From Planctomycetota bacterium (lineage in GTDB: Bacteria; Planctomycetota; UBA8108; UBA1146): a DNA stretch of 64,000 bases. The notes under the pieces were generated by a model. The model was not told the origin of the DNA. It was given only the letters and a program-made list of their open reading frames with translations, and ran no database searches. Below, one piece after another: positions 2,798 to 61,996 of this stretch. The stretch's first letter is position 1. Each line of letters starts with the position of its first letter. The position numbers and the translations under genes were made by a program. Location of the stretch: assembly GCA_028825265.1 (NCBI GenBank), contig JAPKAM010000001.1:386-64385 (forward strand), read 5' to 3'.

Positions 2798-4665
2798 GCA
2801 CTAGCCTCCACATCTGTACTCCTTCCGGCGGTTTTTATGTCGTCGAGATCTCGGTCGAACAAGCGATGAATGATGGACTGGTCATCGGCCGGGATCCCGG
2901 TGCTGACGTGACCATCGACGATGACGCTGCGAGTCGCTTTCACGCCCGCTTGAGTTGTAAGGACCAACGCTGGTACATAGTCGACCTGGAGTCATCCAAC
3001 GGCACCTATCTCAACAATGATCCTGTCCGACAATCGGAACTCGCACCTGGCGACTTGCTCGCCATCGGAGATAGCGAGATCCGACTCGAAGCGGCGATCT
3101 CAACCGCCTCGGAATCCCTTTCCAGAACCCAGGTAGTGCACCGAATCGATGTCGCTCCCGAGGAGTTGGACGGCAAACGAGCCGCCCAGGTGCTGGGAGC
3201 CCTGCACTCCTGCGCCCCGCTGTTGGGTCGCTCAGCCGAGGAGAACTCAGCGCGCCTGGAGAAAGGTCTACGGCTGCTGGTCGAAGGCACGAATGCGGAT
3301 CGGGGGGCCATCTTGATCAGTGAAAAAGAAGGTTGGCTCTGTCGCTCTGCATGGTCGCGTAGCGGAACCCCGATGCATGGATTCGTTCTGAGCCACACGA
3401 TTCACAGCGAGGTGATGCAATCCCGGCGAGCCGTGATCTCGCGTGACACCACCGAAGATCTCCGATTTGCGGACCGCCGGAGCGTCGTCGGAGATGAAAT
3501 TCGCTCGGTGATCGCGGCTCCGATCCCGGTCCACGATGGAATCGGAGGGATTCTTTACCTCGACCGCCTCGACGGAGACCAAAGACCCTTCGGCGACGAG
3601 GAATTGTGGGGCTCTGGAGTCGCTGCAGGAATCATCGGAGCGGGCTTCTCGGTCGGTGAAGAATTGATCGAGTTGTCCAGCGATCGTAAAGAACTGGTTC
3701 GAACCGTGATCGACTCGATGCCCATCATCGGGAACTCGCCGCAAATCGATCAAGTTCGCAACTTCATAAGAAAAACAGCTCCGACTGAAGGCACCGTGCT
3801 GATCCGGGGAGAAACCGGCACCGGTAAGGAACTGGTCGCCAGGGCGATCCACTACCAGGGCAGTCGTGCTGCGGCTCCCTTCATCGCGATGAACTGTGCC
3901 GCAATTCCTGAAAACCTGGTCGAGAGTGAACTGTTCGGCCACGAGAAAGGTGCCTTCACCGGTGCCGATCAGCGAAAGGCTGGCAAGTTCGAGGCCGGAT
4001 CGGGAGGAACAGTCTTCCTCGATGAAATCGGGGAACTGCCCACCTCTGCACAGTCTAAGATGCTCAGGTTACTCGAGGAAAAAAGATTCGAACGAGTCGG
4101 TGGCAACAACTCCGTCGAGGTCGATGTGAGAATCGTCGCCGCCACCCACCGTGACCTGCAAGAAGAGGTCGCACAGGGTCGCTTTCGTGAAGACCTGTAC
4201 TATCGACTTGCGGTGCTCGAAGTGGTGGTGCCGCCGCTCCGTGATCGACCCGGTGACATCGACTTGCTGGCAGAACACTTTCTCGATCTCTGCTGTGGGA
4301 GAAGTCGCCAGCGCAAGCAACTTTCTCGCAATGCCATGACTGCGATGCGGTTGCATTCGTGGCCTGGCAATGTTCGCCAGTTGAGAAATGTCATCGAGAG
4401 TGCCGTGATCCTGTCTCCCTCAACATTACTGGAAGTGGATGATCTTCGTCTCGATCACACCGCCAGCCGAAAGCCAAATCCATCGCCGACCCCGGAGTGG
4501 CAACCGGTCTCGATGAAGGAACTGGAGAGAGAGCACATCGCTCGGGTGCTCAATCATGTGAACTGGAACAAGAAGCGCGCGGCAGAAATTCTTGGAATCG
4601 AACGCTCCACGCTGTACTCGAGAATTCGCAACCTGGATCTGGAGCCGAGTAAGGGTCCCTCATGA
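2794..4665 (+). CDS. Sigma-54-dependent transcriptional activator with FHA, GAF, AAA+ (sigma54 interaction) and Fis-type HTH domains
   Basis: FHA motif VIGRDPGADVTIDD...SRFHARL...SSNGTYLN. Walker A GETGTGKE. Intact GAFTGA (GHEKGAFTGA). ESELFGHEKG. C-terminal HTH AAEILGIERSTLYSRI. Its ATG overlaps the kinase stop (ATGA at 2794-2797). Confidence 0.9.
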   Translation: MSTSLHICTPSGGFYVVEISVEQAMNDGLVIGRDPGADVTIDDDAASRFHARLSCKDQRWYIVDLESSNGTYLNNDPVRQSELAPGDLLAIGDSEIRLEAAISTASESLSRTQVVHRIDVAPEELDGKRAAQVLGALHSCAPLLGRSAEENSARLEKGLRLLVEGTNADRGAILISEKEGWLCRSAWSRSGTPMHGFVLSHTIHSEVMQSRRAVISRDTTEDLRFADRRSVVGDEIRSVIAAPIPVHDGIGGILYLDRLDGDQRPFGDEELWGSGVAAGIIGAGFSVGEELIELSSDRKELVRTVIDSMPIIGNSPQIDQVRNFIRKTAPTEGTVLIRGETGTGKELVARAIHYQGSRAAAPFIAMNCAAIPENLVESELFGHEKGAFTGADQRKAGKFEAGSGGTVFLDEIGELPTSAQSKMLRLLEEKRFERVGGNNSVEVDVRIVAATHRDLQEEVAQGRFREDLYYRLAVLEVVVPPLRDRPGDIDLLAEHFLDLCCGRSRQRKQLSRNAMTAMRLHSWPGNVRQLRNVIESAVILSPSTLLEVDDLRLDHTASRKPNPSPTPEWQPVSMKELEREHIARVLNHVNWNKKRAAEILGIERSTLYSRIRNLDLEPSKGPS

Positions 4666-5435
4666 TTCCCGTGATGCTCGCCTCCTGGATCGGATTGTTG
4701 CTGCCATTGCCGCAATCCGATCAGTCGATGATTCCCGCCGGACAGATCCCGGTAGGCATCTTGCTTCAGGGCTGGAGCCTGGCCACCGATCAGCAGGTGA
4801 TCTCGGAGAGTTCAATCCTGGGCCATCGATCGATCCTGTTATTGCGACCGCTGGCCCTTTCCACCTCGACCAGCACCATGCTCCTGAGAGCACAACTGAA
4901 GCAAGCGGGCATCGAACTGAAGCCGATCCGCCGCGGACTGGTTCGTGGTCCCCACTGGGCCACCACCGATCCTGACGCAGAGCCGCCGCTGGCTCGCTAT
5001 CAGATCCGGGTGATCCCGCTCCAGCACCTGGATCCGGAACCGATCTGCCAATTACTACGAGAAGACGCTCGCAAGCGCGAGCAAGAGATCGGACCGCTCG
5101 ATCGGTACAGTCGCTTTGTTGCCGATCCTCGGACCGGCTCGGTCATCATCTCCTGTACCTCTGCTCGGCGTCTCGAACAGTACCTGAAACTGCTCTCCGC
5201 GGCAGACTGTCCACCGGTGGCGGGGACCCAAAGGCCCGTGCTCCGCAACTGGTCCACCCGCTTTGGCCGCGCCAAGGAACTGGCCCTGGAACTGGATCGA
5301 GCCTGGAAAGAGCGCGGCGGACGGCCGATTCACGTGGTCGCCCATCGAGCCTCCAATAGCCTCATGATCCGGCTGCCCAAGCACCTCTGGCCCGCCGTCG
5401 AGAAGCTCCTCGATCAACTGGATCGCCCTTCCTGA
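4662..5435 (+). CDS. Hypothetical exported protein with one Secretin_N (NolW-like) type domain; possible T2SS accessory protein
   Basis: N-terminal hydrophobic signal or anchor MIPVMLASWIGLLLPLP. The segment YQIRVIPLQHLDPEPICQLLRE...DPRTGSVIISCTSARRLEQYLKLLSAAD follows the secretin-N domain pattern. Its start overlaps the activator stop by 4 bp. Confidence 0.45.
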   Translation: MIPVMLASWIGLLLPLPQSDQSMIPAGQIPVGILLQGWSLATDQQVISESSILGHRSILLLRPLALSTSTSTMLLRAQLKQAGIELKPIRRGLVRGPHWATTDPDAEPPLARYQIRVIPLQHLDPEPICQLLREDARKREQEIGPLDRYSRFVADPRTGSVIISCTSARRLEQYLKLLSAADCPPVAGTQRPVLRNWSTRFGRAKELALELDRAWKERGGRPIHVVAHRASNSLMIRLPKHLWPAVEKLLDQLDRPS

Positions 5436-5570
5436 GAGCCACTCTTGCCGGCTCCGTTGTGTTCGATTATCAAACACTCTCCACCCCAGATCAGTCAGAA
5501 GATCTCTCGTGATGGTTACCGGAATATGCATAACTCCTTTAATAAAATAAAGTTGTGGAACTTGCCCGGT

Positions 5571-5597
5571 TGGCATGGACGGGCATTTCATTTGCGT
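5571..5597 (+). promoter_or_regulatory. Candidate sigma-54 promoter (-24 GG / -12 GC) upstream of gspD
   Basis: Sequence TTGGCATGGACGGGCATTTCATTTGCG. GG at 5582-5583 and GC at 5594-5595 are 10 nt apart (GGGCAT-N5-TTGC), and an overlapping TGGCAT lies at 5572-5577. An AT-rich tract (TTTAATAAAATAAAG) lies just upstream. The site is ~150 nt 5' of the secretin ORF. Confidence 0.35.
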
Positions 5598-5745
5598 AAT
5601 GATGCTCAGACCAGTGTTTCCTCGCACTTGAGGAACCCAGAGGTCGACAGCGCGGCCTCGTGTTGGATCTTTCCCGCCAGAGGAATCCTGGATCTCCCCG
5701 AAAGAGATTTCCCGATCCAGCCGATCAAAGGAAACAAGAGTCGCC

Positions 5746-8100
5746 ATGAACCCGACGACGGAAGGGTGTGTCATAATGGCCCGCAATTCGAAGGTCTCCA
5801 CAAGCGAGACCCTGATCTTTACCTCCTGGATGGCCCCATTGGCCCTTCTGGTACTGTTCATCACCCTCAGCATCGTACTTCCAACTGCCATGCTGGCTCA
5901 GGATCCTCCCGATCCCGTCTCCGAAGAAGAGACGAGCGAGGAAACGGCCCGCGAAGGAGCCGCCACTGCTGCCGGAGCGAACGATTCGGATGTCTCCAAC
6001 CCGGCCATGTACCGAATGGAAGAAGGCAAGTTCCCCGTTCTGAGCCTGATGCGCTTCATCCAGCGCACCTCTGGCAAGTTCGTGAACTATCCCTCCGCTG
6101 GCAAAGATCCTGCATTTGCAGAGGAAACATTTGTCGATGTGGTGGGCGATGTCGATCCGCTGACCTATCCCATCGTCCAGGCGATTCTCGAGACCAACGG
6201 TTACGAGTTGTGGGAAAGCACACTCGATGACGGCACCGTGGTGATCAACGTCCGAGCAACCACCGCACGGACCCAGCCGCCCTCTGATCCGGTCAGCCCC
6301 ATCATCGAGGCGGGTTCCGATCAGGTCTCCGAGTCCGGCGATGAACTAGCAACGCTGGTCCTGCAACTGAAGCATGTCGAGACTGCAGTGGTTCGTCAGG
6401 CTCTCCAAGAGTTGCTCGGAATCCAGGGTGCCGGAAGTCAGAGTGGCAGTCTCAAGATTGTGACCGTGACCAATAACGAAACCCTCATCATCAAGGCCAA
6501 GATGCGCGTTCTCGATCACATCCAACGACTGGTCGAATACATCGATGTCGAGGTCCGTGGTCCCGAAGAGTTGCTCGTCATTCGCGAACTTTTTTACGCC
6601 GATGCCCAAGATATCGTGAGCATTGTCCAGGAAGCACTGAGTGACACATCATCCGCTGGATCCACGGGTCGTAGGACCTCAACTCCAACCTCCCAGGCAG
6701 GACGTGGCGGCAGCACCGCCAACCGGGGTTCAGTCGGTCGCGGAACTGGGCAAGTGGGAGAATCGACCCGCTTGATCGCTGACAATCGCACCCAAAAGAT
6801 TCTGATCCAGTCCTCGGACCCGGCAGAACTCGATCTGGTTCACCAGTTGATCGACGAACTCGACACCAAGGTGAGAAACATCCGCAACACAACCTGGATC
6901 TACAAGGTCAACTACCTCAAGGCAGAGGAACTGGCGGATAACATCCGGCAATTGGTCGAAGGATCGGAAGGATCCCTGCGCCGTGGATCCTCCAGCCGTG
7001 GCGGCACGAGCCGAACCTCCGGCCGAGGAACCACTGGTGGAGCCGGCGGAGTGCAGCAACAACAACAGTTCACTCCAACGCGGATCGTGCCCCACGAACA
7101 AACCAACTCGTTGATCATCCAGGCCGAGCCGGAAGAGTACGAACAGATCGAGGCCATCCTGAAACAGATCGACAAGCGTCGTCGTCAGGTATTCCTCGAG
7201 GTCGCCCTGGTGCAGGTGAAGGACAGTTCCAGTCTCAACTACACCCTCGAATTCCTCGCCGGAAACCTCGATGACCAGGCACTGACCGGCATCCTCTTGA
7301 GCTCCTTCGGTGCCAGTGAGGTCATCCCCAATGTCGATCCCAATGGCGTGATCACTGGAGTCAACAGAATCCCCGGCATCGGCGGGGCAGGACTCAACGC
7401 AATACTCCAGCAGGACGGTCAGTTCCCGTTGATCATGAGTGCCTTGAAGTCCGATGAGGATTCCAACATCCTCGCCACGCCGTTCATCCTGGCGGACGAC
7501 AATCAGGAGAACTCGATCTCGGTTCAAAACGAGATCTTCTACACCAGTTCTAACACCACCAACGTCAACACCACCACTTCTCAGCAATCAGAAAGTGCCG
7601 GAATCACTCTGTCACTGATCCCCACCATTTCCAGTGAGGTCGTACTGCTGGAGCTAGAGTTGGAAGTGTCTTCCTTCTCAGGGGTCTCCAACTCAACCGG
7701 CGCCCTCCCCGATCGATCGACGAATATCATCAGTTCAAAGGTGACGATTCCAGACGGCGGAATGTTCATCATCGGTGGATTGGCTCAAATGGCCGAATCG
7801 GAGGTCAAGAGCAAGGTACCCCTGCTGGGAGATCTTCCCTTCATCGGCACCCTGTTCCAGTCGAGTGGCTCTAACTCTACACGTGACAACCTGTACGTGT
7901 TCCTGAGTGCACACATCCTCGATGATGATCACTTCAATAATCTCGGCGACTTCACCAAGGACGCGATCCACGGGGTCCGTTCCTTCCAGGATGATCTGAG
8001 ACTTCAGCAGTTCACCGATCCAAATAACAAACGCGACCAGCAACTCGCTCCCTTGATCCGGCCAGGACTGACAGCCACCGAGGCGGAGAAAACACCATGA
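5746..8100 (+). CDS. gspD: Type II secretion system secretin GspD (N0-N3 domains plus secretin domain)
   Basis: Signal-like N-terminus. Repeated secretin-N modules (e.g. TWIYKVNYLKAEELADNIRQL). Canonical secretin motif VPLLGDLPFIGTLFQ and ...NLYVFLSAHIL. Confidence 0.9.
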   Translation: MNPTTEGCVIMARNSKVSTSETLIFTSWMAPLALLVLFITLSIVLPTAMLAQDPPDPVSEEETSEETAREGAATAAGANDSDVSNPAMYRMEEGKFPVLSLMRFIQRTSGKFVNYPSAGKDPAFAEETFVDVVGDVDPLTYPIVQAILETNGYELWESTLDDGTVVINVRATTARTQPPSDPVSPIIEAGSDQVSESGDELATLVLQLKHVETAVVRQALQELLGIQGAGSQSGSLKIVTVTNNETLIIKAKMRVLDHIQRLVEYIDVEVRGPEELLVIRELFYADAQDIVSIVQEALSDTSSAGSTGRRTSTPTSQAGRGGSTANRGSVGRGTGQVGESTRLIADNRTQKILIQSSDPAELDLVHQLIDELDTKVRNIRNTTWIYKVNYLKAEELADNIRQLVEGSEGSLRRGSSSRGGTSRTSGRGTTGGAGGVQQQQQFTPTRIVPHEQTNSLIIQAEPEEYEQIEAILKQIDKRRRQVFLEVALVQVKDSSSLNYTLEFLAGNLDDQALTGILLSSFGASEVIPNVDPNGVITGVNRIPGIGGAGLNAILQQDGQFPLIMSALKSDEDSNILATPFILADDNQENSISVQNEIFYTSSNTTNVNTTTSQQSESAGITLSLIPTISSEVVLLELELEVSSFSGVSNSTGALPDRSTNIISSKVTIPDGGMFIIGGLAQMAESEVKSKVPLLGDLPFIGTLFQSSGSNSTRDNLYVFLSAHILDDDHFNNLGDFTKDAIHGVRSFQDDLRLQQFTDPNNKRDQQLAPLIRPGLTATEAEKTP

Positions 8101-9800: not shown

Positions 9801-9819
9801 AAGTTAGCCAGGAGCGCGG

Positions 9820-11034: not shown

Positions 11035-11081
11035 AACCTTCCCGGCAATTCCGGGATGAAATTAATGATTAGGAGGCGGCC

Positions 11082-11501: not shown

Positions 11502-11505
11502 GCTC

Positions 11506-31058: not shown

Positions 31059-31082
31059 CGATTCCTCCTCAGCAACGGTAAA

Positions 31083-32507
31083 TCATCCGCCGGAGCTGTT
31101 GGTTCCGCTCGCTTCGCTGGTCTTCTGAATTTGAGTCTCGACCTGCGTCGATCCTGCAGGATCGACGGCAGTGTTACCCGTAGGGATGGCTACCGATGGC
31201 GAGCGTGAGTCTTTACCCGGACGCCGGCCGGTGGACTTCCCCGCTCGGCGATCACCACGAGTCTCACCAGAGGTACCGGTCGGACCTGTCCGTGATTCCT
31301 TTATTGGATTCGGCTGCCGATCTGCGGAACCACCATCCATCCTCTCGACGGTGATGGAGTCGACTTCGACTGGAATTTCTCGGTAGACGCTAACCCGATC
31401 ACGATCGGAAAGATCGTCCAGCCCCTGGACCACGACCCGGTCACCCAGGCCCAGTCCTTCCTCGCAGACGATGATCGTCTCGTTCTCGTAACCGGTCACC
31501 ACATCGATCTCCTGAACAGTTTCACCATCTTCGAGCAGGCGAAAGATGCGTGATCGTCCTTCACCTTTCAGCACCGCCTTGCGCGGCACCACGATGCAGT
31601 TCTTCAGGGTCCTGGTGATGATGTCTATGTGGGCAAATGAACCGGGTCGTAACGTCACTCCCGCATCTGGAAATGTGGTCAACACCTCGACGGTCAAACT
31701 CTCGCGATCGACCACCGGACTGATTCGTTCGACGGTGCCTTCGGAAAGCACCGGGCCGTCGCTTTCAGAGCGCAGCACACAGCGTTGACCCAGTTCGACA
31801 TCACCCACTTCGCTCTCGGGGAGGTACAGCCGAACTCGAAGCGGCTCAAAGTCGGCGAAGGCAAATAATTCATCGCCAACTCGAACGTATTGCCCCGATT
31901 CCACCCGGCGACGAATGATGATGCCGTCGAATAAAGCCTCGGGCTGAGAATGCCCCAGGTCGATCAGGGAACGAGCATGATTCGCTTCAGTTTTCTGCAG
32001 AGTAAATCGGGAGTCTTCTAGTTCTTGATTGGTGACGCCGCGAATTTCAGACAAACCCTCGAGTCGTTCGAAACTCGCCTTGGCCTGCTCCATCTCAATT
32101 CGAGCGAGTTGTTCTGAGATCCGCAACTCCTCCTGATCGATGGTGCAGAGGGTCATCCCCTTGCTCACCTGCTGGCCCTCGACCACGTGAACGTCGTCGA
32201 CACTTCCTTCGACCCTGGAGAGGAGCGAGACCTGTCTCTCGGGCTCCAGGATTCCACTGCCGCGGACTCGTTCTCGAATCACTGCCAACATCGAGGAGGT
32301 CACTTCTACTGGCACCACTTCTTGTCGGTTGCTGGTCGCCGATGTTCCGTATTGAAATCCACCGGAACTTCGACCTCCCGAGGATCCAGGCCGTCCCATC
32401 GAACCGGCTCCAGGTGCAGAGTTTCCACCAGGAATGGCACCGTGAGAGAACCAGCCGATGGCCACCAGGGCGATCGCAGTGATCAACTGCGGCATCCATC
32501 GTTTCAT
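31083..32507 (-). CDS. RND efflux membrane fusion protein (HlyD/MdtA-like) with long Gly/Ser/Arg-rich C-terminal tail
   Basis: Lipoyl, beta-barrel and hairpin pattern (coiled-coil ...ISEQLARIEMEQAKASFERLEGL...). The C-terminal ~100 aa are low-complexity (GPTGTSGETRGDRRAGKSTGRRPGKDSRSPS...). Confidence 0.85.
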   Translation of the reverse strand: MKRWMPQLITAIALVAIGWFSHGAIPGGNSAPGAGSMGRPGSSGGRSSGGFQYGTSATSNRQEVVPVEVTSSMLAVIRERVRGSGILEPERQVSLLSRVEGSVDDVHVVEGQQVSKGMTLCTIDQEELRISEQLARIEMEQAKASFERLEGLSEIRGVTNQELEDSRFTLQKTEANHARSLIDLGHSQPEALFDGIIIRRRVESGQYVRVGDELFAFADFEPLRVRLYLPESEVGDVELGQRCVLRSESDGPVLSEGTVERISPVVDRESLTVEVLTTFPDAGVTLRPGSFAHIDIITRTLKNCIVVPRKAVLKGEGRSRIFRLLEDGETVQEIDVVTGYENETIIVCEEGLGLGDRVVVQGLDDLSDRDRVSVYREIPVEVDSITVERMDGGSADRQPNPIKESRTGPTGTSGETRGDRRAGKSTGRRPGKDSRSPSVAIPTGNTAVDPAGSTQVETQIQKTSEASGTNSSGG

Positions 32508-51397: not shown

Positions 51398-54144
51398 CTA
51401 GTGATCCCGTCCGGGGCTGGCTCTCAATGCTGGCTCTGCCGCGAATCCAGTCGGCGATTCGATACGAGTCACTTCCACCGCAGCCACTTTGAACTCGGGG
51501 GTTTCCGTGATGGGATCCACATCTGGATTGGTGATGTCGTTGGTCATCGTTTCCTCAGGAAAGGCGAAACTCATGAACATGGTCCCGCGAGGGGATGTCT
51601 TTGTGACGGTCACCCGAGTCATCACCTCGCCACGACGGGAGCGGATTTTTGCCCAGTCGCCATCTTCGAGTTTCAACTTCTCGGCATCCGCTGGATGAAC
51701 TTCGAGCCATTCATTGGGAACCAGGATCCGAAATCCGCTCGACCGCCCAGTCATGGTGTTGGTGTGATAGGTCGGCAAACGACGTCCTGTGGTCAGGTAG
51801 TAGGGATACTCATCGTCTGGATTCTCCGAAGGAGGGACATACTCCAGTAACTGCAACTTGCCCTTACCATTGACGAACTCATCCTCGTGCAACACGGGAG
51901 TTCCAGGGTGGTCGAGGTGAGGAACTGGCCATGCCAGATCTCCCGATTCGATCCGATCGTAATTGAGCCCCGCATAGATGGGAGACAAGGATGCCAGTTC
52001 ATCGAAGACCTCTTCGCTACTGGAATAGTCGAAATGAACTCCGCTTTCCATCCGCTTGGCGACTTCCGCAATGATCCACCAGTCCGCCTTTGCTTCTCCC
52101 GGCGGTACAGCCGCCTGCCTCAGGCGTTGCACACGACGATCCGAATTGGTGAAGAAGCCATCGACCTCAGTGAACGCTGCCGCAGGAAAGATCACATCTG
52201 CTTTTTCCGCCGTGTCAGTGAGAAACATGTCCTGAACAACGAGGAAATCCAGAGCTTCGAGAGCCTTGGTTGTGTGCTTGACATCAGGATCGGTGACCAG
52301 TGTGTTTTCGCCGACAATCCACATCGATTTGACTCGACCATCGACTGCATGATCGAGGGCTGCGATTTTTGTGATTCCATTTTTTGGGTCCATCGGAACA
52401 CCATAGGCCTTCTCGAATTTCAGCTGGCTCGCAGGATCATCGACCGCCTGGAATCCGGGGTAGTTGTTGGGCAATGCGCCGCAATCACCGGCTCCCTGGA
52501 TGTTGTTCTGGCCACGCAAGGGATTGACTCCAGCACTGCTCTTCCCCAGGTTTCCTGTGATCAGTGCTAGATTACAGAGGCTCTGTACATTTGAGACTCC
52601 GCAGATGTGCTCCGTGATTCCAAGGGTGTAATAAATTCCAGCTCGCTCTGCTGAACCATACGCGATGGCACATTCACGAATCAAATCTGCAGGAACCCCG
52701 GTGACTCCCTCGGCATATTCGGGCGTGAAGGGCACCAAGTGATCCTTCAATTGCTCGAATCCTTCGGTACGATTCTCGATGTAATCCAGATCTGCGAGCC
52801 CTTCCTGGATGATCACATTGGCCATCGCATTGAAGAGCGCGACATCGGAACCCAGTTTCAATGGCAAGTGCCCGGTGGCGTATTGTGTCAGCGGTATCTT
52901 TCGTGGATCGACCACGTAAAGCTTGGCACCCTTTCGAACCGCCTTCTTCACACGCACCGCGATGATCGGATGGCATTCGGTCATGTTGGTACCGACACAC
53001 AGCATCATCGGGCAATCCTCGATCTCGGGGATCGAGTTCGACATCGCTCCGCGTCCAATCGAGGCCGCCAGACCGGCGACCGTTGGACTGTGTCAGCCAC
53101 GCGAACAGTTGTCGATTTGATTCGAGTTCATCACTGCTCGAGTGAACTTCTGTAACATGTAGGCACTTTCGCCAGGAGCTCTACCACTGGCGATGGCGTA
53201 AAAGGCCTTGGGGCCATGGTCCGCCTTGATGCTCTTAAGGCGTGAAGCAGTATAGTCGAGCGCCTCGTTCCAGGAGACTGGAGTCAACTTCCCCTGCTTG
53301 CGAATCAGTGGCCTGGTCAGTCGGTCATCCGAGTTGACGAAATCAAACCCAAACTGTCCCTTCACGCACAACGCTCCGGCATTGACCGGGCCGCCGAGAA
53401 CCGGCGTGACTCCGATCATCTTTCCATCCCTTGAATGGAGATTGATGGAACAACCGGTACCACAATAGGGACACACACTTCGAGTGACTTCGATCTCACC
53501 AGGAACAGATCCCTGATTGACCATCTTCTTGTCAGCAAGAGCTCCGGTGGGACAGGTGTAGATGCATTGCCCGCAGAGCGTACAGTCGCTACCCATCAAG
53601 AGACCATCAAACGCGGTGGCGATGCCCTTGTTCCAACCACGGCCAGTCATGGTGATGGCATGATCCGCTTCCACTTCATCGCAGATTCGGACACATCGAT
53701 AGCAGGAGATGCATCGGTCGTAGTCTCGCAGCAGGAAGGGATTGGAATCATCCATCGAGGCGTTGCTGGTCGCTCCCAGGAAGCGATTGCGTCCAACCTT
53801 GAATTCTGTAGCCAGGTCGTGAACTTCACAACTTCCGAGATCCCTGCACCTCGGACACTCATCACCCGGGTTTTCCGAAAGCACCATCTCGACCAAGGTA
53901 CTCTGCATCTTCCGCAGTTTGTCACTGCCAGTGCGCACCACCATGCCTTCTGCGGCCCCCAGAGTGCAGGAAGAAGCGGGCATCCGATGGCCTTCCACTT
54001 CCACCACGCACAATCGACAGGAGCCAAAGGGCTCGAGCCGTTCATCCCAACAAAGGGTCGGAACAAAGGTCCCCAGACGCCGTGCCACTTCGAGCACCGT
54101 CTCGCCCTCCTGGAAGGTCACATCTTGACCATCGAGATTCATCT
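51398..54144 (-). CDS. fdhA: Selenocysteine-containing formate dehydrogenase catalytic subunit (FdhF/FdsA-like). N-terminal NuoG-like 2Fe-2S plus 4Fe-4S domains are fused to a Mo-bisPGD domain. The in-frame TGA (complement of 53093-53095) is read as Sec.
   Basis: The two track ORFs (53093..54217 and 51398..53044) are in the same frame, separated only by TGA. The translation across the junction is ...YMLQKFTRAVMNSNQIDNCSRG-U-HSPTVAGLAASIGRGAMSNSIPEIEDCPMMLCVGTNMTECHP... It aligns with E. coli FdhF ...VDCCARV-U-HGPSVAGL...GAMSNAINEID... N-terminus CRLCVVEV (2Fe-2S), CISCYRCVRICDE and CTLCGQCIYTCP (4Fe-4S), CPYCGTGCSINL (MopB 4Fe-4S). Start at ATG (complement of 54142-54144) with AAGGAG RBS. Confidence 0.85.
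53063..53092 (-). promoter_or_regulatory. Putative bacterial SECIS element immediately 3' of the UGA-Sec codon of fdhA
   Basis: mRNA: UGA-CACAGUCCAAC-GGUCGCC-GGUCU-GGCGGCC. 7-bp stem (with one G·U pair) and GGUCU apical loop begin 11 nt after UGA. This closely mirrors the E. coli fdhF SECIS (GGUUGCAGGUCUGCACC). Confidence 0.5.
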
Positions 54145-54149
54145 TCGAC

Positions 54150-55910
54150 TCACTCAACTGAATCTCCTTTTCCTGGGTTCTTCGCACTCTGCCCGTCGAT
54201 GTAGTCTTGCACGACATCCGGCCAGTACTTCTTCATCGTCCTGGTGATGAAGGGTGCAGCCAATCCAAGTCCACAGGCGCTGGTTTCTCCCAGCACCTCT
54301 TCCAAGTCTGCCAGTTCCTCCAGTGGATTGTCGCGAATCACCGGGTTCCCAGCGGAATGCTCGATCAATTCATCGAGCAACTCGGTAACCCTGACAGTAC
54401 CGATTCGGCAGGGAAAACACTTCCCGCACGATTCCTGCGCAAGGAAGTGCATACTCTCGCGCGCCGCTTGGATCATGCACCGAGTTTCATCGTGCACGAT
54501 GATCCCTCCGGCTCCGAGCATTGCGCCGAGTTCCGTCAAGGAACCTGGATCGAGCGCCACGTCGAGATCCGCGGCTCCGACGAACCCGCCGCTGATTCCC
54601 GCCATCGTCACACCCTGGATCGCTTTTCCATCGGGTGTTCCACCGGCGTAAGTTTGCAGGAGTTCTCGCAGCGAAGTCCCCACCGGGACCTCGTAATTTC
54701 CGGGGTGGGAGATATCTCCCGAAACGCTGAAGACTCGGGTTCCGGCATTTTCTCCCAACCCGAGTGCCTGGAACCAGGCTCCCCCTTTTTCAAGGATGGC
54801 AGGGACTGCACAGAAGGTCTCGACATTGTTGACCACTGTCGGCAGATCGAACAGTCCATGAGTGGTGGGGAAAGGAGGCTTCTCCCTCGGGAATGGGTGC
54901 TTGCCCTCCAGAGAGTTCAACAGTGAGGTCTCTTCACCACAGATGTAGGCTCCGGCTCCCCGACGGATGACAATCCGAAATGGCCGACCCGTTCCACAGA
55001 CATCATCTCCCAGCAGACCCGCCTGAGTGGCTTCGTCGATGGCGACCTGCAGTGATTCAAGGATTTCAGGGTATTCCCACCGAAGATATACGATGCCAAT
55101 CTTGGCACCGGTCACCAGGCCTGCACAGGCCATTCCCTCGAGCATTGCATGGGGACTATGAGCCATCAGAAGTCGATCCTTGAAACAACCGACCTCACTC
55201 TCGTCCGCGTTGCAAATGATGTACTTCGGCCCGCGGGTCTCGCTACGAACCGCTTCCCACTTCACGCCGGTGGGAAATCCTGCCCCCCCCCTGCCAGTGA
55301 GGCCGCTTTCATTCATCTGGGCGAGCACTTCCTGAGGATCGGAGGCGGCCAGTTTGGGGCTCTCCCAGGCTCCGTGGGAAAGCGCTCCAGCGAGGGTGTC
55401 GATTCCATCTCGAATGTCTCGGAAGAGACACTCTTCCAGACCTGTTTCGGGGGGAAGCGGCATCGTCGCAGCAGTCATATTTTCGACGGCACCGGCCCGG
55501 GCACCGTGGAAAAACTTCTCGCCGATCAGAATCGGAACCGGCATATCACATCGCCCCGGGCAGGAGATCTTCTCGACCTGGCCCGAATGTGCGACTCCCA
55601 GATCCACATCGACCACCTCCCTGGAAATGGCATCCAGATCATGAAGGCAGCAAGCCGAGTTCTCACAGATACGAATATCGGGGATCGGTTTCGGCTCCAG
55701 CTGGAAGTAGTGGTAGAAGGTGACGGTGCCATAGAGGTCGCTGATGGGGATCTTGAATCGCTCAGCCACCTGTCGGAGAGCAGGTTCTGGCAGATAACCA
55801 TGATGATCCTGGATCGCATGAAGCACCTCCAGGAACGGAGCCGGCTGCTCCATCAGGCGATCGAGAATCCCATCGGTGACCGGATCCTTGACCTCGATTC
55901 CCGTCTTCAT
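54150..55910 (-). CDS. Fused NuoE-like (2Fe-2S) / NuoF-like (FMN, NADH-binding, 4Fe-4S) diaphorase subunit of NAD(P)-linked formate dehydrogenase
   Basis: NuoE part: HAIQDHHGYLPEPALRQVAERFKIPISDLYGTVTFYHYF...ICENSACCLHD. NuoF part: GRGGAGFPTGVKWE, ESCGKCFPCRIGT. Immediately upstream of fdhA (5-nt gap). Confidence 0.85.
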   Translation of the reverse strand: MKTGIEVKDPVTDGILDRLMEQPAPFLEVLHAIQDHHGYLPEPALRQVAERFKIPISDLYGTVTFYHYFQLEPKPIPDIRICENSACCLHDLDAISREVVDVDLGVAHSGQVEKISCPGRCDMPVPILIGEKFFHGARAGAVENMTAATMPLPPETGLEECLFRDIRDGIDTLAGALSHGAWESPKLAASDPQEVLAQMNESGLTGRGGAGFPTGVKWEAVRSETRGPKYIICNADESEVGCFKDRLLMAHSPHAMLEGMACAGLVTGAKIGIVYLRWEYPEILESLQVAIDEATQAGLLGDDVCGTGRPFRIVIRRGAGAYICGEETSLLNSLEGKHPFPREKPPFPTTHGLFDLPTVVNNVETFCAVPAILEKGGAWFQALGLGENAGTRVFSVSGDISHPGNYEVPVGTSLRELLQTYAGGTPDGKAIQGVTMAGISGGFVGAADLDVALDPGSLTELGAMLGAGGIIVHDETRCMIQAARESMHFLAQESCGKCFPCRIGTVRVTELLDELIEHSAGNPVIRDNPLEELADLEEVLGETSACGLGLAAPFITRTMKKYWPDVVQDYIDGQSAKNPGKGDSVE

Positions 55911-56118: not shown

Positions 56119-59100
56119 TCAGCGAATCGAGAGTCCGTCGATATCCTCACTGGCGTTGATCCCGAGTGCACTCATATCGAGAATCAACTCTGCAAGCCCC
56201 GATGTCGCGCTTCCAAAACTACCGGTGAATCGCGAGACATCCTCGTCCGCACCGGCCGATCCCGAGGCGGAGTAAGATCCCTGGGTCGAGAAGAGCAAGG
56301 ATCCATCAAAATCGAGACTGATGGCATTGAGATCTTCACCACCGCTGTTGGAAAAACCAACATCACTCCCATCGAAGAAAGTGGTCCAGGAACCACCGCT
56401 GGCAGAGCCTACGGATGTGGGGGTGAAGAGCATCACATCTTCATCGCGGTTGGTCGGCCCACCGCCACGAGCCGTGCCCAGCGTCGACATCAACAAGGTG
56501 CCATCATCTAGATAACAAACCCCATCGATATCCTCACCGTTGGTCGTGAGTGCACAGTCCGAACCATCGAGGTAGAAGGACCATGAGCCCGCGCTGCTGG
56601 AGCCGGTCATGGTGGGCGTGAACAGAACCAGGTCACTATCTTCCACCGTGTTTCCGGAGGGCCCACCTATGAGTCCCGACAATGAGAACGAGCCGGAGTT
56701 AAAGGAAACCAGCACGCTACCATCCGCAAGGACGCTGAGAGCATTGATGTCGGTACTACCGATACCGACATCGCTACCGTCCAAATACCAGTCCCAGGAA
56801 TCGGTCGCTGGATCGTAGGTCACGATGTCTTCATCCCGAACCGTTCCCAGTCCAGGTACCGTGGTGGTCGACAGGAATGAGATGTAGTACAGCGTTGACG
56901 AAGGAGGCGGTGGGGGCGGCGGAGGAGGATCGGTCACAACGATGCAAGAGTTGCAAGTGACGGTGTCAGAGCCCCCCGGTCCGGTCACCGTCAAACTCAC
57001 GGTGTAGGTCCCGGCACTGGTATAGGTGTGCGACGGGTTCAGTGCCGACGATCCATTTCCATCACCAAAGTCCCACGAGTAACCGGTGATGTCTCCGATC
57101 GACGAATTACTGAAGGAGACGGTCACCGGCGCTTCGCCCCCCGATGAATCGTGGATGAAGCCAGCCACCGGAGCGGGTGGCGGCGGCGGCGGATCGGTCA
57201 CCACGATGCACGAGTTACAGGTCGCGGTGTCCGAGCCCCCCGGTCCAGTCGCCGTCAGGGTCACGGTGTAGGTGCCTGCACTGGTATAGGTGTGCGATGG
57301 GTTCTGCGCGGTCGAGGCGCCGCCATCGCCAAAGGTCCACGAGTATCCACTGATATCTCCCGTCGACGAATTGCTGAAGGAGACGGTCACCGGTGCTTCA
57401 CCACCGGAGGAATCGGCCGAGAAACCGGCCACCGGAGCGGTCGGCGGGGGTGGCGGCGGATCGGTCACCACGATGCACGAGCCACAAGTTGCCGTGTCGG
57501 AGCCCCCCGCGCCGGTGGCGGTCAAGGTCACGGTGTAGGTGCCAGCACTGGTGTAGGTGTGCGACGGGTTCAGTGCCGTCGAGCCCCCTCCATCGCCAAA
57601 GTCCCACGAGTATCCGCTGATGTCTCCGGTCGACGAATTATTGAAGGAGACGGTCACCGGTGCTTCACCACCGGATGAACTGGGCGTGAAGCCCGCCGCC
57701 GGTGGTGGCGGTGGCGGATCGGTCACCACGATGCACGAGCCACAAGTTGCCGTGTCCGAACCCCCCGGACCGGTCACCGTCAAGATCACGGTGTAGGTGC
57801 CAGCACTGCTATAGGTGTGCGACGGATTCTGCGCCGTCGATGCGCCACCATCGCCAAAGGTCCACGAGAATCCACTGATGTCTCCGGTCGACGAATTGCT
57901 GAAGGAGACGCTCACCGGCGCTTCTCCGCCGGATGAACTGGGCGTGAAGCCCGCCACCGGTGGTGGCGGCGGCGGATCGGTCACCACGATGCACGAGTTA
58001 CAGGTTGCGGTGTTGGAGCCCCCCGGTCCAGTTGCGGTCAAGGTCACCGTGTAGGTGCCCGCACTGGTGTAACTGTGGGACGGGTTCAGTGCCGTCGATC
58101 CACCCCCGTCGCCGAAGTTCCACAAATAGCCGGTGATGTCTCCGGTCGACGAATTACTGAAGGAAACAGTCACCGGCGCTTCACCACTGGTCGGCGATGG
58201 CACGAAGCCGGCTACCGGTGCGGGAGGAGGGGGCGGGGGTGATCCGATGAAGCAATTGAGGATCGCACCGACCAGACCTGCCCGGGTCGATGCGCCATCG
58301 ACGAGCCCACCGATCTCGAATGAAGTTCCGAAGGTACGATAGGTGCCGGCATCATTGAACACCCCGACATCGTAGGCTGCAGTCGGATTGGTCAGGGTGA
58401 CCACTGCACTGCCCGTCGTTCCGAGACGATCGATCCAACTGTTCTCACCGCTATAGCTCCAACTACTGCCCACAAGGCTGCAGCCGGCTCCGGCGGCTCC
58501 GTTAACGGTCGAAAGGTCACTGGTTCCATCGGACAGTCCGCTGATCCCAAAGTGCGAATGAACCGCGGTCGCACTGTCGTAGGCCCAGGTATCGCCTCCC
58601 TCCATGTAGAGGAAGGATCCACCGACACCATTGGTCAGGTAGGTCTCGAGAGTGGTGCCCTCTGCGGCCGACAGTACATGGCCCGATGGGTAAATGCCCA
58701 GATTGACCCAGACCGTCTCGAAGGCGTCGAGACTCGCGACGGCATCGAGGGTGGTGACCACCAGTGGCGAACGACCATTGGCGGTGAGTGCCGCAGAGAT
58801 GGCACTTCCCCCCGCCACGGCACCGCCCGCTGCCGATGGAGCCCAGACCAGATCGGTCGCTCCTCCGGTGAGGAAAATGGAGCAACTGACCTGAGGACTT
58901 TGGTCCGAGCCGACGAAGCCTCGAACTCCGTAGGAGATGTTTCCCACTCCTGCGGCGGAATCGGTGTACGAGGTGGCAGATCCGGAAAGAGTGGCGATGA
59001 CGCTACCGCCGCGGCTCACCTGTACCTGTGAATAACTCTCGCCATTGGTCCAAGAGAGGAGCGCATCGGCACCGGAGCTGCTACAGCTGAGATTGGTCGG

Positions 59101-60720
59101 CGCGCTCACGGAACTCGCCACCGTCAGCAGCAACGCCTCGCAGTTGATCCGTCCGTAGCCCATGTATTGATCAAAACCGGCCGTATCTTCCGAGGGCGGC
59201 CCAACTTGGTCATCAGCGGTCTGTCGCATGTAAGTTCGAACTTGATCGTGGGTCAAGCCCGGCGCCACCGCCAGCAACAGTGCTCCAGCACCCGCAGCGT
59301 GAGGGGTGGCCGAAGATGTACCGTTGAAACTGGAAGTGTAGTCGGTTGAAGAGTAGCCACCGCTGCCGGAGATATCGACGGTGGTCGTCAACGGACCCGG
59401 TGCGACAAAGTCGAGAGCAGATCCGTAGTTACTGCCCCACCAGGTTTCTCCATCGCAAGACGATGGACTCTTGCGTTCATCACAGGGGCTGGAAGCACCC
59501 ACGGCGATCGCTTCTGGATAGAGTGCCGGATAAGAGACCGCAGAGTTGTCATTCCCTGAAGCGAAGAAAACCGGGCAACCCAGTCCCCCTCTTCCGTTGG
59601 TGTTGCCGTAAGCGACCGCATTCTGGATGGCGCTACTGGCCGATCCTCCCCCCCAGCTATTGGAGAGAACATCCGCACCATGGTCGACCGGCCAGGTCAG
59701 TCCATCGACGAGCCAATCGGTCTGAGTCCAGAAACTTCCGAATCCGATGCGCACCGGCATGATCTTGCTGTTCCACGTGACACCCGTGACACCGATTCCG
59801 TTGTTTCCCACCGCTGCGATGATGCCTGCACAGCAGGTTCCATGGCCGTCTGTGGAGTTGGCATTTCCGGGGATCCCTCCCGGTGTGGGGTCAGCAGTGA
59901 CGGCATCGTAGCCCGCCACCATGTTGGCTTGCAGGTCCGCATGATTCACATCGACACCTTCGTCGATGACCGCCACCACGATGCTCGAAGAACCGGTCGA
60001 GATGTCCCAGGCGGCGGCGGCTTTCATGTCCGCACCGATGGTGCCGCCGGTTTGTCCGGTATTCTGCATGTCCCACTGATCTGGGAAGAGCGGATCGTTA
60101 GGAGTCGCCATTTCTGGCAAATCGTGGATAAAATTGGGCTCCGCAACCCAGACTTCCTCCAGTTGCGTCAGGGCGTCAGAGATTTCGAAACCGAGCGATG
60201 TGGGTCCATCGAAACCCAGCATGTAGGTCGGATCGATGGCCGGAAACTCCCTGAGAAAGCGCAGTCCTGACTGTCGAATCACGCTTCGGATCTCATCAGC
60301 GTCGACCGAACCATCGAAAGTCACGATGACTTCCGGCCGTGGAATCATGACCGCTTCTTGGTACCCGAGGACCGGGCCGGCAAACTCGACGACGGCCGCA
60401 CTCGATAGTTGTGCGAGGATCTCTTGCTGCATCCTTGCATCGACTCGCTTCTCGAGAGGGACGTACCACAGTCCAGGGTACTCCTGCAGGTCCTTTTCAC
60501 TGACCTTGCCGACTCCTCGGATCGATCGCAGTTCGGCCCGCAGGGAACCCAACTCATCTTCCAGTCCGTCGATCATCTTGACCGCAACGATCCCATCCAC
60601 CTGAACCAGGGATGCTCGTCCTTCTCCGTAGGGATAGGACCACTTCTGCCCTGTCTCCTGAGCGCTGGAAAGAAGGGGGGAAAACAGCACAAAGAGCAGT
60701 GCCGGGAAAATTCGAAGCAT
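56119..60720 (-). CDS. Giant secreted subtilisin-like serine protease (S8) with 5 tandem PKD domains and a C-terminal triple-repeat domain of unknown function
   Basis: Signal peptide MLRIFPALLFVLFSPLLSSAQE (start at complement of 60718-60720, AGGAGG RBS 5 nt upstream; an in-frame ATG 15 nt further upstream is an alternative). S8 triad regions VAVIDEGVDVNHADL (Asp), HGTCCAGIIAA (His), GTSSATPHAAGAGALL (Ser). Five ~88-aa PKD repeats (...EAPVTVSFSNSSTGDISGYSWTFGDGG.STA.NPSHTY.SAGTYTVTLTATGPGGSDTATC.SCIVVT) are separated by poly-Pro linkers. Confidence 0.85.
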   Translation of the reverse strand: MLRIFPALLFVLFSPLLSSAQETGQKWSYPYGEGRASLVQVDGIVAVKMIDGLEDELGSLRAELRSIRGVGKVSEKDLQEYPGLWYVPLEKRVDARMQQEILAQLSSAAVVEFAGPVLGYQEAVMIPRPEVIVTFDGSVDADEIRSVIRQSGLRFLREFPAIDPTYMLGFDGPTSLGFEISDALTQLEEVWVAEPNFIHDLPEMATPNDPLFPDQWDMQNTGQTGGTIGADMKAAAAWDISTGSSSIVVAVIDEGVDVNHADLQANMVAGYDAVTADPTPGGIPGNANSTDGHGTCCAGIIAAVGNNGIGVTGVTWNSKIMPVRIGFGSFWTQTDWLVDGLTWPVDHGADVLSNSWGGGSASSAIQNAVAYGNTNGRGGLGCPVFFASGNDNSAVSYPALYPEAIAVGASSPCDERKSPSSCDGETWWGSNYGSALDFVAPGPLTTTVDISGSGGYSSTDYTSSFNGTSSATPHAAGAGALLLAVAPGLTHDQVRTYMRQTADDQVGPPSEDTAGFDQYMGYGRINCEALLLTVASSVSAPTNLSCSSSGADALLSWTNGESYSQVQVSRGGSVIATLSGSATSYTDSAAGVGNISYGVRGFVGSDQSPQVSCSIFLTGGATDLVWAPSAAGGAVAGGSAISAALTANGRSPLVVTTLDAVASLDAFETVWVNLGIYPSGHVLSAAEGTTLETYLTNGVGGSFLYMEGGDTWAYDSATAVHSHFGISGLSDGTSDLSTVNGAAGAGCSLVGSSWSYSGENSWIDRLGTTGSAVVTLTNPTAAYDVGVFNDAGTYRTFGTSFEIGGLVDGASTRAGLVGAILNCFIGSPPPPPPAPVAGFVPSPTSGEAPVTVSFSNSSTGDITGYLWNFGDGGGSTALNPSHSYTSAGTYTVTLTATGPGGSNTATCNSCIVVTDPPPPPPVAGFTPSSSGGEAPVSVSFSNSSTGDISGFSWTFGDGGASTAQNPSHTYSSAGTYTVILTVTGPGGSDTATCGSCIVVTDPPPPPPAAGFTPSSSGGEAPVTVSFNNSSTGDISGYSWDFGDGGGSTALNPSHTYTSAGTYTVTLTATGAGGSDTATCGSCIVVTDPPPPPPTAPVAGFSADSSGGEAPVTVSFSNSSTGDISGYSWTFGDGGASTAQNPSHTYTSAGTYTVTLTATGPGGSDTATCNSCIVVTDPPPPPPAPVAGFIHDSSGGEAPVTVSFSNSSIGDITGYSWDFGDGNGSSALNPSHTYTSAGTYTVSLTVTGPGGSDTVTCNSCIVVTDPPPPPPPPPSSTLYYISFLSTTTVPGLGTVRDEDIVTYDPATDSWDWYLDGSDVGIGSTDINALSVLADGSVLVSFNSGSFSLSGLIGGPSGNTVEDSDLVLFTPTMTGSSSAGSWSFYLDGSDCALTTNGEDIDGVCYLDDGTLLMSTLGTARGGGPTNRDEDVMLFTPTSVGSASGGSWTTFFDGSDVGFSNSGGEDLNAISLDFDGSLLFSTQGSYSASGSAGADEDVSRFTGSFGSATSGLAELILDMSALGINASEDIDGLSIR
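56930..58250. repeat. Five near-identical ~264-bp tandem DNA repeats (encoding PKD domains plus PPPPPP linkers)
   Basis: Strong DNA periodicity. The + strand shadow ORFs at 57086, 57290, 57557, 57815 and 58133 have near-identical sequences (…SPVDELLKETVTGASPP…GGGGGG…). Confidence 0.85.
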
Positions 60721-60955
60721 AAGTTCCTCCTGCATTCGGCGATGCCGAAAACCAACTCGGGAGTCCCGAGTCATGACATGACGGGGCAAATCAAAAGAAC
60801 CCAATCTCGCAGGCGGGAGCGAGGAACGAGCAGTTTGATCGAGAGAATCGACCACATCAACCATGTGCCTTCCTCCTCGAGGATGGGCTATCCTGCCACA
60901 GTGAATTCTGTAGGACTCTTTGGAAACAACCCAACATCTCGATGAAGGAGCACTG

Positions 60956-61996
60956 ATGAATACCCTGATCGTATTGATCACAATTATGGCCACGGCTGTC
61001 CCGACAATGGACGATTCATCTCCATGGCTCACCTTCAATGGCACCAAGGGCGCGGGAGTGGGAAAGCACATCGTATTGATCACGGGCGATGAGGAGTACC
61101 GATCGGAACAAGGGATGCCCCAGATGGCTCAGGTCCTCGCCAAGCACCACGGCTTCCGCTGCACGGTCCTCTTTTCCATCGATCCCGAAACCGGTTGTAT
61201 AGATCCGCAGGTCAATGACAACATTCCCGGAATGGAGCTCATCGATGGAGCCGACCTGGTGATTCTCTTCACCCGCTTCCGAAATCTTCCAGACGAACAG
61301 ATGAAACACTTCGTCAATTTCGTCAATTCGGGCAAACCTGTGATCGGACTACGAACATCGACTCACGCCTTCGATATCCCGGGTGACCGGGAGTATCACC
61401 GCTGGTCGTGGCGGAATGGCCAGTGGGACGGCGGGTTTGGACGCCAGGTGATGGGTGAGACATGGATCGATCATCATGGAGGCCATGGCTGGCAAAGTAG
61501 TAGCGGCATCATCGTCGAAGGGGCCAGCGATCATCCGATCCTCCAGGGGATCAAGAACGGCGATGTCTGGGACCCTTCCGATGTCTACACGGTACGGTTA
61601 CCACTCCCCAAGGGCTGCACCCCTCTATTGAACGGTCGAGTGCTGTCGGGGATGGACCCCGATGACGGACCCTGTGAGGTGGAGAAGAAAGACGACCAGA
61701 CCACATTCGACAAGAACGATCCGATGATGCCGATCGCCTGGACCCATGTACGCCGATCTGAAAGCGGCAAGAAGCAGCGGGTCTTCTCCTCGACCTTTGG
61801 AGCATCGCGTTCCTTTACCCGGGAAGGCTCGAGAAGGCTGCTGGTCAACGCCTGCTACTGGTGCCTCGGCATGCAGGGGCAGATCAAACCGAACTTGACG
61901 GTCGATCTGGTCGGCGACTATCAACCGACCCAGTTCGGATTCGGCAAGCACACCCCCGATCTGAAGCCAGCGGACATGGTCAAGACGGCTCAATGA
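60956..61996 (+). CDS. ThuA-like (trehalose-utilisation / class-I glutamine amidotransferase-like) protein
   Basis: HIVLITGDEEYRSEQGMPQMAQVLAKHHGFRCTVLFS...ELIDGADLVILFTRFRNLPDEQMKHFVNFVNSGKPVIGLRTSTHAF is the ThuA family pattern. AAGGAG RBS before ATG 60956. Confidence 0.75.
   Translation: MNTLIVLITIMATAVPTMDDSSPWLTFNGTKGAGVGKHIVLITGDEEYRSEQGMPQMAQVLAKHHGFRCTVLFSIDPETGCIDPQVNDNIPGMELIDGADLVILFTRFRNLPDEQMKHFVNFVNSGKPVIGLRTSTHAFDIPGDREYHRWSWRNGQWDGGFGRQVMGETWIDHHGGHGWQSSSGIIVEGASDHPILQGIKNGDVWDPSDVYTVRLPLPKGCTPLLNGRVLSGMDPDDGPCEVEKKDDQTTFDKNDPMMPIAWTHVRRSESGKKQRVFSSTFGASRSFTREGSRRLLVNACYWCLGMQGQIKPNLTVDLVGDYQPTQFGFGKHTPDLKPADMVKTAQ

Follow-up and report, generated by a model that had tools for sequence, protein, structure and literature searches.

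A hairpin after an in-frame UGA in a planctomycete formate dehydrogenase gene and its reading as a bacterial SECIS element

Does the in-frame UGA that interrupts the formate dehydrogenase gene fdhA of an uncultured marine planctomycete end one protein ahead of another, or is it read as selenocysteine (Sec)? The question arises in a 64,000-nt stretch of contig JAPKAM010000001.1 (the window, whose positions supply all coordinates below), where a short stem-loop follows the UGA on the minus strand. We conclude with high confidence that this hairpin is the bacterial selenocysteine insertion sequence (SECIS) element for an NAD(P)-linked formate dehydrogenase alpha subunit (FdhA) that contains selenocysteine, and that the UGA is almost certainly read as selenocysteine, making the gene one protein, not two. 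A preliminary description of the sequence had proposed a SECIS recognized by the elongation factor SelB, a reading supported by the register of the hairpin, the criteria of the bSECIS model, a match to the Rfam family SECIS_3 and conservation among orthologs.

The hairpin and its conservation

Two open reading frames (ORFs) on the minus strand, 53093..54217 and 51398..53044, share a frame, and the interval 54217..51398 comprises 939 codons containing a single UGA (53093..53095), after which fdhA continues for another 564 codons. This proposed selenocysteine codon lies in the motif NCSRG-U-HSPTVAGL, at the molybdenum/tungsten (Mo/W)-ligand position of FdhA, and the surrounding RNA reads, 5′ to 3′, ...UGU UCG CGU GGC UGA CAC AGU CCA ACG GUC GCC GGU CUG GCG GCC UCG AUU GGA CGC GGA GCG AUG.... 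An 11-nt spacer read directly from the sequence (CACAGUCCAAC, 53082..53092), carrying the codons for His-Ser-Pro-Thr, separates the UGA from an upper stem-loop (53063..53081) that consists of a 5′ arm GGUCGCC (53081..53075), a GGUCU loop (53074..53070, with G23 at 53073 and U24 at 53072) and a 3′ arm GGCGGCC (53069..53063), all on the minus strand. The preliminary description had placed the hairpin 11 nt past the UGA, and this distance is correct, the interval 53063-53092 that it gave being the spacer plus the hairpin.

The hairpin is real and lies beyond chance expectation. ViennaRNA folded the 19-mer as (((((((.....))))))) at -12.2 kcal/mol, which reproduces the originally described stem of 7 bp with one U·G pair closed by a 5-nt GGUCU loop; dinucleotide shuffles of the same 19-mer averaged -6.1 kcal/mol (z = -2.9), and only 2 of 200 folded equally well. 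When a 7-bp hairpin with a 5-nt loop was scored in this fixed register after all 2216 TGA trinucleotides on both strands of the window, the fdhA site ranked first. A fold of -12 kcal/mol or better occurred at only 2 of the 2216 sites, and GGUC at positions +22..+25 at only 20, giving an expected joint occurrence of hairpin strength and loop sequence of about 0.02 per window. In-frame TGAs with at least 120 open codons on each side numbered 11 in the scan, and no other was followed by a SECIS-like hairpin.

The only other comparably strong hairpins in this register after a TGA are two near-identical palindromes, CCGCCACCACCGG(U/C)GGCGG, at 57983 and 57725 on the minus strand (-12.0 and -10.6 kcal/mol). 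Both fall within ORF 56119-61083, a 1654-aa subtilase/PKD-repeat gene, and probably reflect its repeated PKD domains.

Conservation was assessed in 80 orthologous loci retrieved by one scan of a species-representative genome collection, which together with the window gave 81 sequences in 73 distinct rows. Ten of these loci, at 83-92% identity, belong to marine Planctomycetota metagenome-assembled genomes (MAGs; UBA1146, TMED53 and others), and the other 70, at about 55-59% identity, belong to MAGs of Gemmatimonadota, Poribacteria, Latescibacterota, Verrucomicrobiales, Acidobacteriota, Chloroflexota, Brocadiaceae, and Gamma- and Betaproteobacteria, the full set spanning at least eight phyla. 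None of the 80 loci has lost the TGA codon or the hairpin, whose register is unchanged and free of indels throughout, and spacer length is invariant in all 81 sequences. Across the 73 distinct sequences, 96.5% of cells in the upper helix are paired. Pairing over the whole structure reaches 81%, and drops to 23-56% when the 3′ partner is slid by 1-3 columns.

The preliminary description had named covariation in orthologous fdh genes as a check on the element, and the stem shows compensatory changes at C18:G30. This pair is C-G in 41, U-A in 31 and G-C in 1 of the distinct sequences (48, 32 and 1 across all 81 rows), with no mismatch. Both bases occupy third codon positions, of Val (GUN) and Ala (GCN) respectively, and are therefore not constrained by the protein. 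When a neighbor-joining tree was computed from 1.5 kb of fdhA sequence lying downstream of the hairpin, the pair proved to have changed state at least 11 times, on both sides each time, indicating that the covariation does not stem from one inherited event. The variant GGUUGCC-GGUCU-GGCAGCC occurs in 32 of the 81 sequences. At the base of the stem, G15:C33 appears as five standard pair types (G-C, C-G, U-A, A-U and G-U), and roughly one sequence in four has A·A or some other mismatch there; because this outermost pair is so often lost, the conserved core is best taken as the 6 bp that all 81 sequences share. Within the core, the U17·G31 wobble is invariant (73 of 73 distinct sequences).

The apical loop is similarly constrained, beginning with GG in 81 of 81 sequences and continuing with U in 79. 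At four-fold degenerate sites on either side of the hairpin all four bases occur, while at those in the loop and the top of the stem there is little or no variation, alignment columns 24 and 30 being invariant and column 27 being T in 79 of the 81.

Three UGA-type sequences (L070:3019-3021, L075:3019-3021 and the metagenomic L126) encode the loop glycine with GGG instead of GGT, which yields a GGGCU loop without U24, a base regarded as essential for SelB binding in E. coli, and keep both the TGA and the stem. If these variants are functional, SelB in their lineages would tolerate changes that abolish decoding in E. coli.

Below the upper stem, GUCCAA (53088..53083) can pair with UUGGAC (53058..53053), a lower stem (53053..53088, minus strand) that forms part of the minimum free energy (MFE) fold and extends the hairpin to -23.4 kcal/mol in a 59-nt context. 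We rejected it as a component of the conserved element, as its outer pairs occur only in the close planctomycete clade. All of its pairs form only in the window and in a number of the closest planctomycete relatives, and orthologs at 55-59% identity keep only the central C-C-A/U-G-G pairs, which are fixed by Pro and Gly codons. Lower-helix cells are paired in 63.7% of cases, pair 11-46 forms in just 9 of the 73 distinct sequences, and the lower stem is probably dispensable. RNAalifold, run on a 62-column alignment, recovered only the 6-bp core and additionally proposed long-range pairs between invariant coding columns, which we disregarded because those columns show no variation.

The identity of the interrupted codon fits the same picture. 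All 105 full-length homologs that were aligned have Cys in the column of the UGA, with the motif DHCARL-C-HAsTVAGLA where the window has DNCSRG-U-HSPTVAGLA. The UHxP motif marks the classical Sec/Cys Mo/W-ligand position of formate dehydrogenases (PMC13188914). With U written as C in the query, the protein scored 778.2 bits against TIGR01591, the NCBIfam equivalog for the alpha subunit of formate dehydrogenase (cutoff 666.25).

Comparison with known SECIS elements

In the bSECIS model of Zhang and Gladyshev (in PMC13188914), the upper stem measures 4-16 bp and carries an apical loop of 3-9 nt with at least one G at its first two positions, most often ahead of another G or a U; the distance from UGA to loop is 16-37 nt, and the MFE is at most -7.5 kcal/mol. 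The fdhA hairpin agrees on all four counts, with a 5-nt loop on a 7-bp stem, GG(U) at the start of the loop, 18 nt from UGA to loop (11 of spacer and 7 of arm) and -12.2 kcal/mol; the model's further criterion, a Sec/Cys pair in a known selenoprotein family, is matched by the uniform Cys column and by the TIGR01591 score above cutoff. It also fits the more general description of bacterial SECIS elements as stems of 6-8 bp whose conserved G lies some 20 nt past the UGA (PMC4605307).

A permissive local search of a 251-nt stretch with Rfam models matched SECIS_3 (RF01989) over its full length (model positions 1-59 of 59; 53040..53098, minus strand) at 51.6 bits and E = 2.2e-11, part of this score coming from homologous coding sequence. 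SECIS_2 (RF01988) reached 23.9 bits (E = 0.012) and thus, with a gathering score of 70, fell short of family membership. We take the SECIS_2 consensus to be of the fdhF type, and that of SECIS_3 to be presumably the fdnG/fdoG type of Proteobacteria. The window shares with SECIS_3 the position of the UGA, the spacer in ...CCAACGGU.GCC.GUCUGGC... and a downstream coding region for GRGAM. It differs in its loop, GGUCU as opposed to the consensus AGUCU, and in several lower-stem pairs that are non-canonical in the alignment.

The preliminary description had likened the hairpin to the minimal SECIS of E. coli fdhF, whose binding by SelB has been characterized experimentally, a 17-nt upper stem-loop (positions 15-31) that starts 11 nt from the UGA, bulges U17 and presents G23 and U24 in its loop, above a lower stem that is present but dispensable (PMC8659212). 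Much of this comparison stands. Both elements are part of a formate dehydrogenase coding sequence and follow its Sec-UGA immediately, both are spaced by 11 nt, G23 and U24 carry the same numbers within an apical GGUC(U) loop, and the peptide U-H-x-P-[ST]-V-A-G-L is homologous. The window nevertheless has a 19-nt upper element (positions 15-33) in place of 17 nt, and a continuous 7-bp stem with a pentaloop closed by C21-G27 where fdhF has A21...U26. The host enzymes also differ, that of the window being NAD-linked, of the FdsA/FdhA type and equipped with a NuoG-like Fe-S module at its N terminus, as opposed to the FdhF of formate-hydrogen lyase.

A closer counterpart may be the fdhA SECIS of Moorella thermoacetica, which was reportedly co-crystallized with SelB (Yoshizawa et al., 2005, cited in PMC4605307) and whose core reportedly reads GUUGCC-GGUCU-GGCAAC. 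That element reportedly combines a continuous stem and a GGUCU loop with no requirement for a bulged U; we treat the identity of the core as a lead only. Comparable with it are the GGUUGCC-GGUCU-GGCAGCC variant of 32 of the 81 sequences and the UGUUGCC-GGUCU-GGCAACC of L158. Its host gene is likewise an NAD(P)-linked FdhA, and the window carries the C18-G30 variant of the stem (GUCGCC...GGCGGC).

By analogy with the E. coli and Moorella systems, a ribosome translating fdhA would reach the UGA at 53095..53093 while the stem-loop, some 11 nt further on, still lay immediately outside the entrance channel for mRNA, where the GGUCU loop with G23 and U24 could be presented to the C-terminal winged-helix domains of SelB. 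SelB-GTP carrying Sec-tRNA(Sec) would then be tethered beside the A site and outcompete release factor 2 (RF2), selenocysteine would be inserted as the Mo/W ligand, and translation would go on.

Several observations weigh against this assignment. U17, whose bulge is essential for E. coli SelB (PMC8659212), sits here in a predicted, invariant U·G wobble with G31, and in this respect the predicted fold departs from fdhF. The SECIS_3 match lies below the gathering score of 63, short of family membership, and at gathering thresholds Rfam returned no match for the window, nor for any of 18 orthologous loci that were scanned. In 18 of 81 sequences the stem ends in an A·A mismatch, and the extended 59-nt fold is about as stable as shuffles of the same G+C-rich stretch (z = -0.89). 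The loop GGUCU is also part of the Gly-Leu codons of T-V-A-G-L, and some of the sequence likeness to fdhF and fdnG is due to this shared peptide. Finally, ARAGORN found no tRNA, and hence no tRNA-Sec, in the 64-kb window, nor any tRNA within 3 kb of the fdhA genes of the 80 orthologous loci, and Pfam scans of 40 window ORFs identified no SelA, SelB or SelD. Such a lack of linkage between sel genes and fdhA agrees with the arrangement reported in PMC4807772, and we infer from the E. coli and Moorella systems that this organism carries selA, selB, selC and selD, with binding of the hairpin by SelB, competition with RF2 and insertion of selenocysteine proceeding as outlined above.

The combination of a continuous stem, an invariant U17·G31 pair and a GGUCU pentaloop raises the possibility that the FdhA clade, spread over at least eight phyla, carries a distinct SECIS subclass lying under Rfam thresholds. 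We offer this as a tentative proposal and, on present evidence, doubt that it is correct.

Termination, peptide constraint and other decoding

Could the UGA instead be a true stop, in a split gene or pseudogene whose halves are made separately, with a restart at the ATG at 53044 and with the hairpin either idle or acting in termination and reinitiation? Genome annotation appears to say so, since public gene callers report C-terminal ORFs of 536-552 aa; TGA is also the usual stop codon here (among 26 Pfam-supported window ORFs, 18 end in TGA, 5 in TAA and 3, including fdhA itself, in TAG), and the window holds no visible Sec machinery. In our search of a protein collection, all matches at 69-91% identity were such 536-552-aa fragments covering only the part after the UGA, and full-length matches reached no more than 48% identity. 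This is the pattern expected if the orthologs share the same in-frame stop, and the selenoprotein appears to be systematically split by gene callers. The fragments (P0001-P0008, P0030, P0085, P0086, P0093, P0098, P0099 and P0113) bear names that include 'molybdopterin-dependent oxidoreductase' and 'YjgC'.

The sequence between the UGA and the first ATG speaks directly to this question. Over the 18 codons past the UGA, summed column entropy amounts to 2.5 bits for first, 0.8 bits for second and 19.9 bits for third codon positions. Drift at third positions with conservation of the first two indicates that the stretch of 16 codons leading up to the ATG at 53044 is under coding selection and translated in frame, which argues against termination followed by restart. 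The stop is moreover always TGA, never TAA or TAG, in the 80 ortholog and 28 metagenome genes, and it falls exactly on the catalytic Cys column, where a split would remove the metal ligand and divide one domain in two: Pfam places Fer2_4, NADH-G_4Fe-4S_3, an Nqo3-type Fer4, Molybdop_Fe4S4 and the first 71 positions of Molybdopterin 5′ of the UGA, and the remainder of Molybdopterin followed by Molydop_binding 3′ of it. A role of the hairpin in termination also sits poorly with a stem that has no run of U on its 3′ side. We therefore regard a true stop as very improbable, and ORFs 53093..54217 and 51398..53044 should be merged in annotation as one selenoprotein gene.

A second explanation holds that the hairpin has no RNA function and is a by-product of encoding the peptide T-V-A-G-L-A-A in G+C-rich codons. 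The geometry invites it, in that the loop is formed by the Gly-Leu codons and the arms by the Val-Ala and Ala-Ala codons, and VAGL is conserved in Cys-type homologs too, some of which (L096 and L100, for example) form a similar hairpin. These homologs supply a natural control. A metagenome scan with Cys-type homologs as query located the motif in 69 loci, 28 with TGA and 41 with TGC or TGT; T-V-A-G-L is the encoded peptide in the majority of the loci. Despite the shared peptide, the two groups differ sharply at the RNA level. UGA-type genes form a mean of 5.93 of 6 inner pairs, as opposed to 3.54 in Cys-type genes, and their 19-mers fold with a mean MFE of -10.8 compared with -3.4 kcal/mol (Mann-Whitney p = 1e-11). 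The GGUCU loop is present in 27 of 28 UGA-type and 8 of 41 Cys-type loci, and the Gly codon is GGT in 27 of 28 versus 11 of 41 (Fisher p = 3e-9).

Restricting the comparison to genes that encode exactly VAGLA leaves the contrast in place, with MFEs of -10.8 and -4.5 kcal/mol for UGA-type and Cys-type genes, respectively, and with GGT in 26 of 27 UGA-type genes compared with Gly codon counts of 7, 7, 7 and 2 among the Cys-type. A distant metagenomic UGA clade adds the compensatory variants GUGGCC/GGCCAC, GUAGCA/UGCUAC and GUUGCC/GGCAAC, and L158 carries UGUUGCC-GGUCU-GGCAACC. Synonymous sites frozen at the top of the hairpin while nearby four-fold sites remain free, taken with the Cys-type contrast, indicate selection on the RNA only where a UGA is present. 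Together with the perfect covariation of synonymous positions 18 and 30 through at least 11 independent double changes, the UGA- versus Cys-type comparison largely refutes the peptide explanation, which we now consider extremely unlikely. The earlier description of the hairpin as "independent" support for Sec recoding needs a qualification: the likeness to fdhF is partly driven by the protein, and the independent evidence lies in the Cys-type homologs, which encode the same peptide and lack the hairpin and its codon bias. Homologs that share a peptide and differ in the UGA offer a clean example of RNA-level selection on synonymous sites.

Some TGC- or TGT-containing homologs keep a SECIS-like hairpin, namely L096 (GGUCGCC-GGUCU-GGCGACA, -10.9 kcal/mol) and also L100, L103 and L107. 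These hairpins may be fossil SECIS elements left by recent Sec-to-Cys conversion, a process that has been described (PMC1794560).

Lastly, decoding of the UGA as another amino acid (Cys or Trp, by a near-cognate tRNA or a reassigned code), with a hairpin that merely slows the ribosome, would draw on the ability of stable structures after stop codons to promote read-through and on the fact that SelB and tRNA-Sec are only inferred here, but it merits almost no credence, given that TGA terminates 18 of the 26 Pfam-supported genes, as expected of the standard code without TGA reassignment, that conservation of the GGUCU loop and its register (79 of 81 and 27 of 28) points to a sequence-specific reader, and that the element matches SECIS models.

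The fdhA locus and its genomic context

With the UGA read through, fdhA (51398..54217, minus strand) encodes a formate dehydrogenase alpha subunit with 2Fe-2S, 4Fe-4S, Mo/W-bis-MGD and MopB-binding domains, supported by Pfam matches on both halves. The closest solved structures are the formate dehydrogenase alpha subunits 9wxb_B and 6tg9_A, followed by 7e5z and 7vw6. Position 54217 is the start of the longest ORF; the real start is probably either TTG 54157, six bases after an AAGGAG, or ATG 54142.

Directly upstream, with ends that overlap or nearly so, lies a fused NuoE-like and NuoF-like gene of the diaphorase or FdhB-G type (54150..55910, minus strand; Pfam 2Fe-2S_thioredx, Complex1_51K and NADH_4Fe-4S), whose NCBIfam matches to nuoF_fam and to formate dehydrogenase gamma both fall under cutoff. 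The two genes apparently form one operon. Downstream of fdhA is a gene for an M48 peptidase, identified by Pfam.

This arrangement has a precedent in the planctomycete 'P1', in which a Sec-containing fdhA lies in a nuoEF-fdhA operon and is not co-localized with Sec-insertion genes (Kim et al. 2016, PMC4807772). By that description the window shares the phylum and the nuoEF-fdhA arrangement of 'P1' and differs in lineage, its own relatives being marine MAGs labeled UBA1146 and TMED53. Among bacterial selenoproteins FdhA is the most widespread (PMC1794560), and several Planctomycetes carry full selA/selB/selD sets (PMC4807772). The hairpin is accordingly an element of a known kind that entails no new mechanism, in an operon type already described in this phylum. 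Its presence nonetheless implies that this uncultured marine planctomycete and its relatives in several phyla would need selenium and a full Sec-decoding system, with selenium serving formate oxidation or CO2 reduction through an NAD(P)-linked enzyme.

Elsewhere in the window, the genes at 4662-13420 (plus strand), 20123-21865 (minus strand) and 24862-32507 (minus strand) provide context and none is related to selenium. They include a type II secretion or type IV pilus-like cluster with a secretin, a T2SSE ATPase, T2SSF, a prepilin-type N-methyl protein and a PilM-like protein. Within the plus-strand region, TGA closes a Secretin_N ORF (4662..5435), beyond which 264 codons stay open in the same frame (5445..6230). 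This open stretch overlaps the secretin ORF 5746..8100 in another frame, has neither a Pfam match nor a SECIS-like hairpin, and is probably a chance product of G+C-rich DNA. The context genes also comprise an RND efflux system with two AcrB-family pumps and a HlyD-type adaptor.

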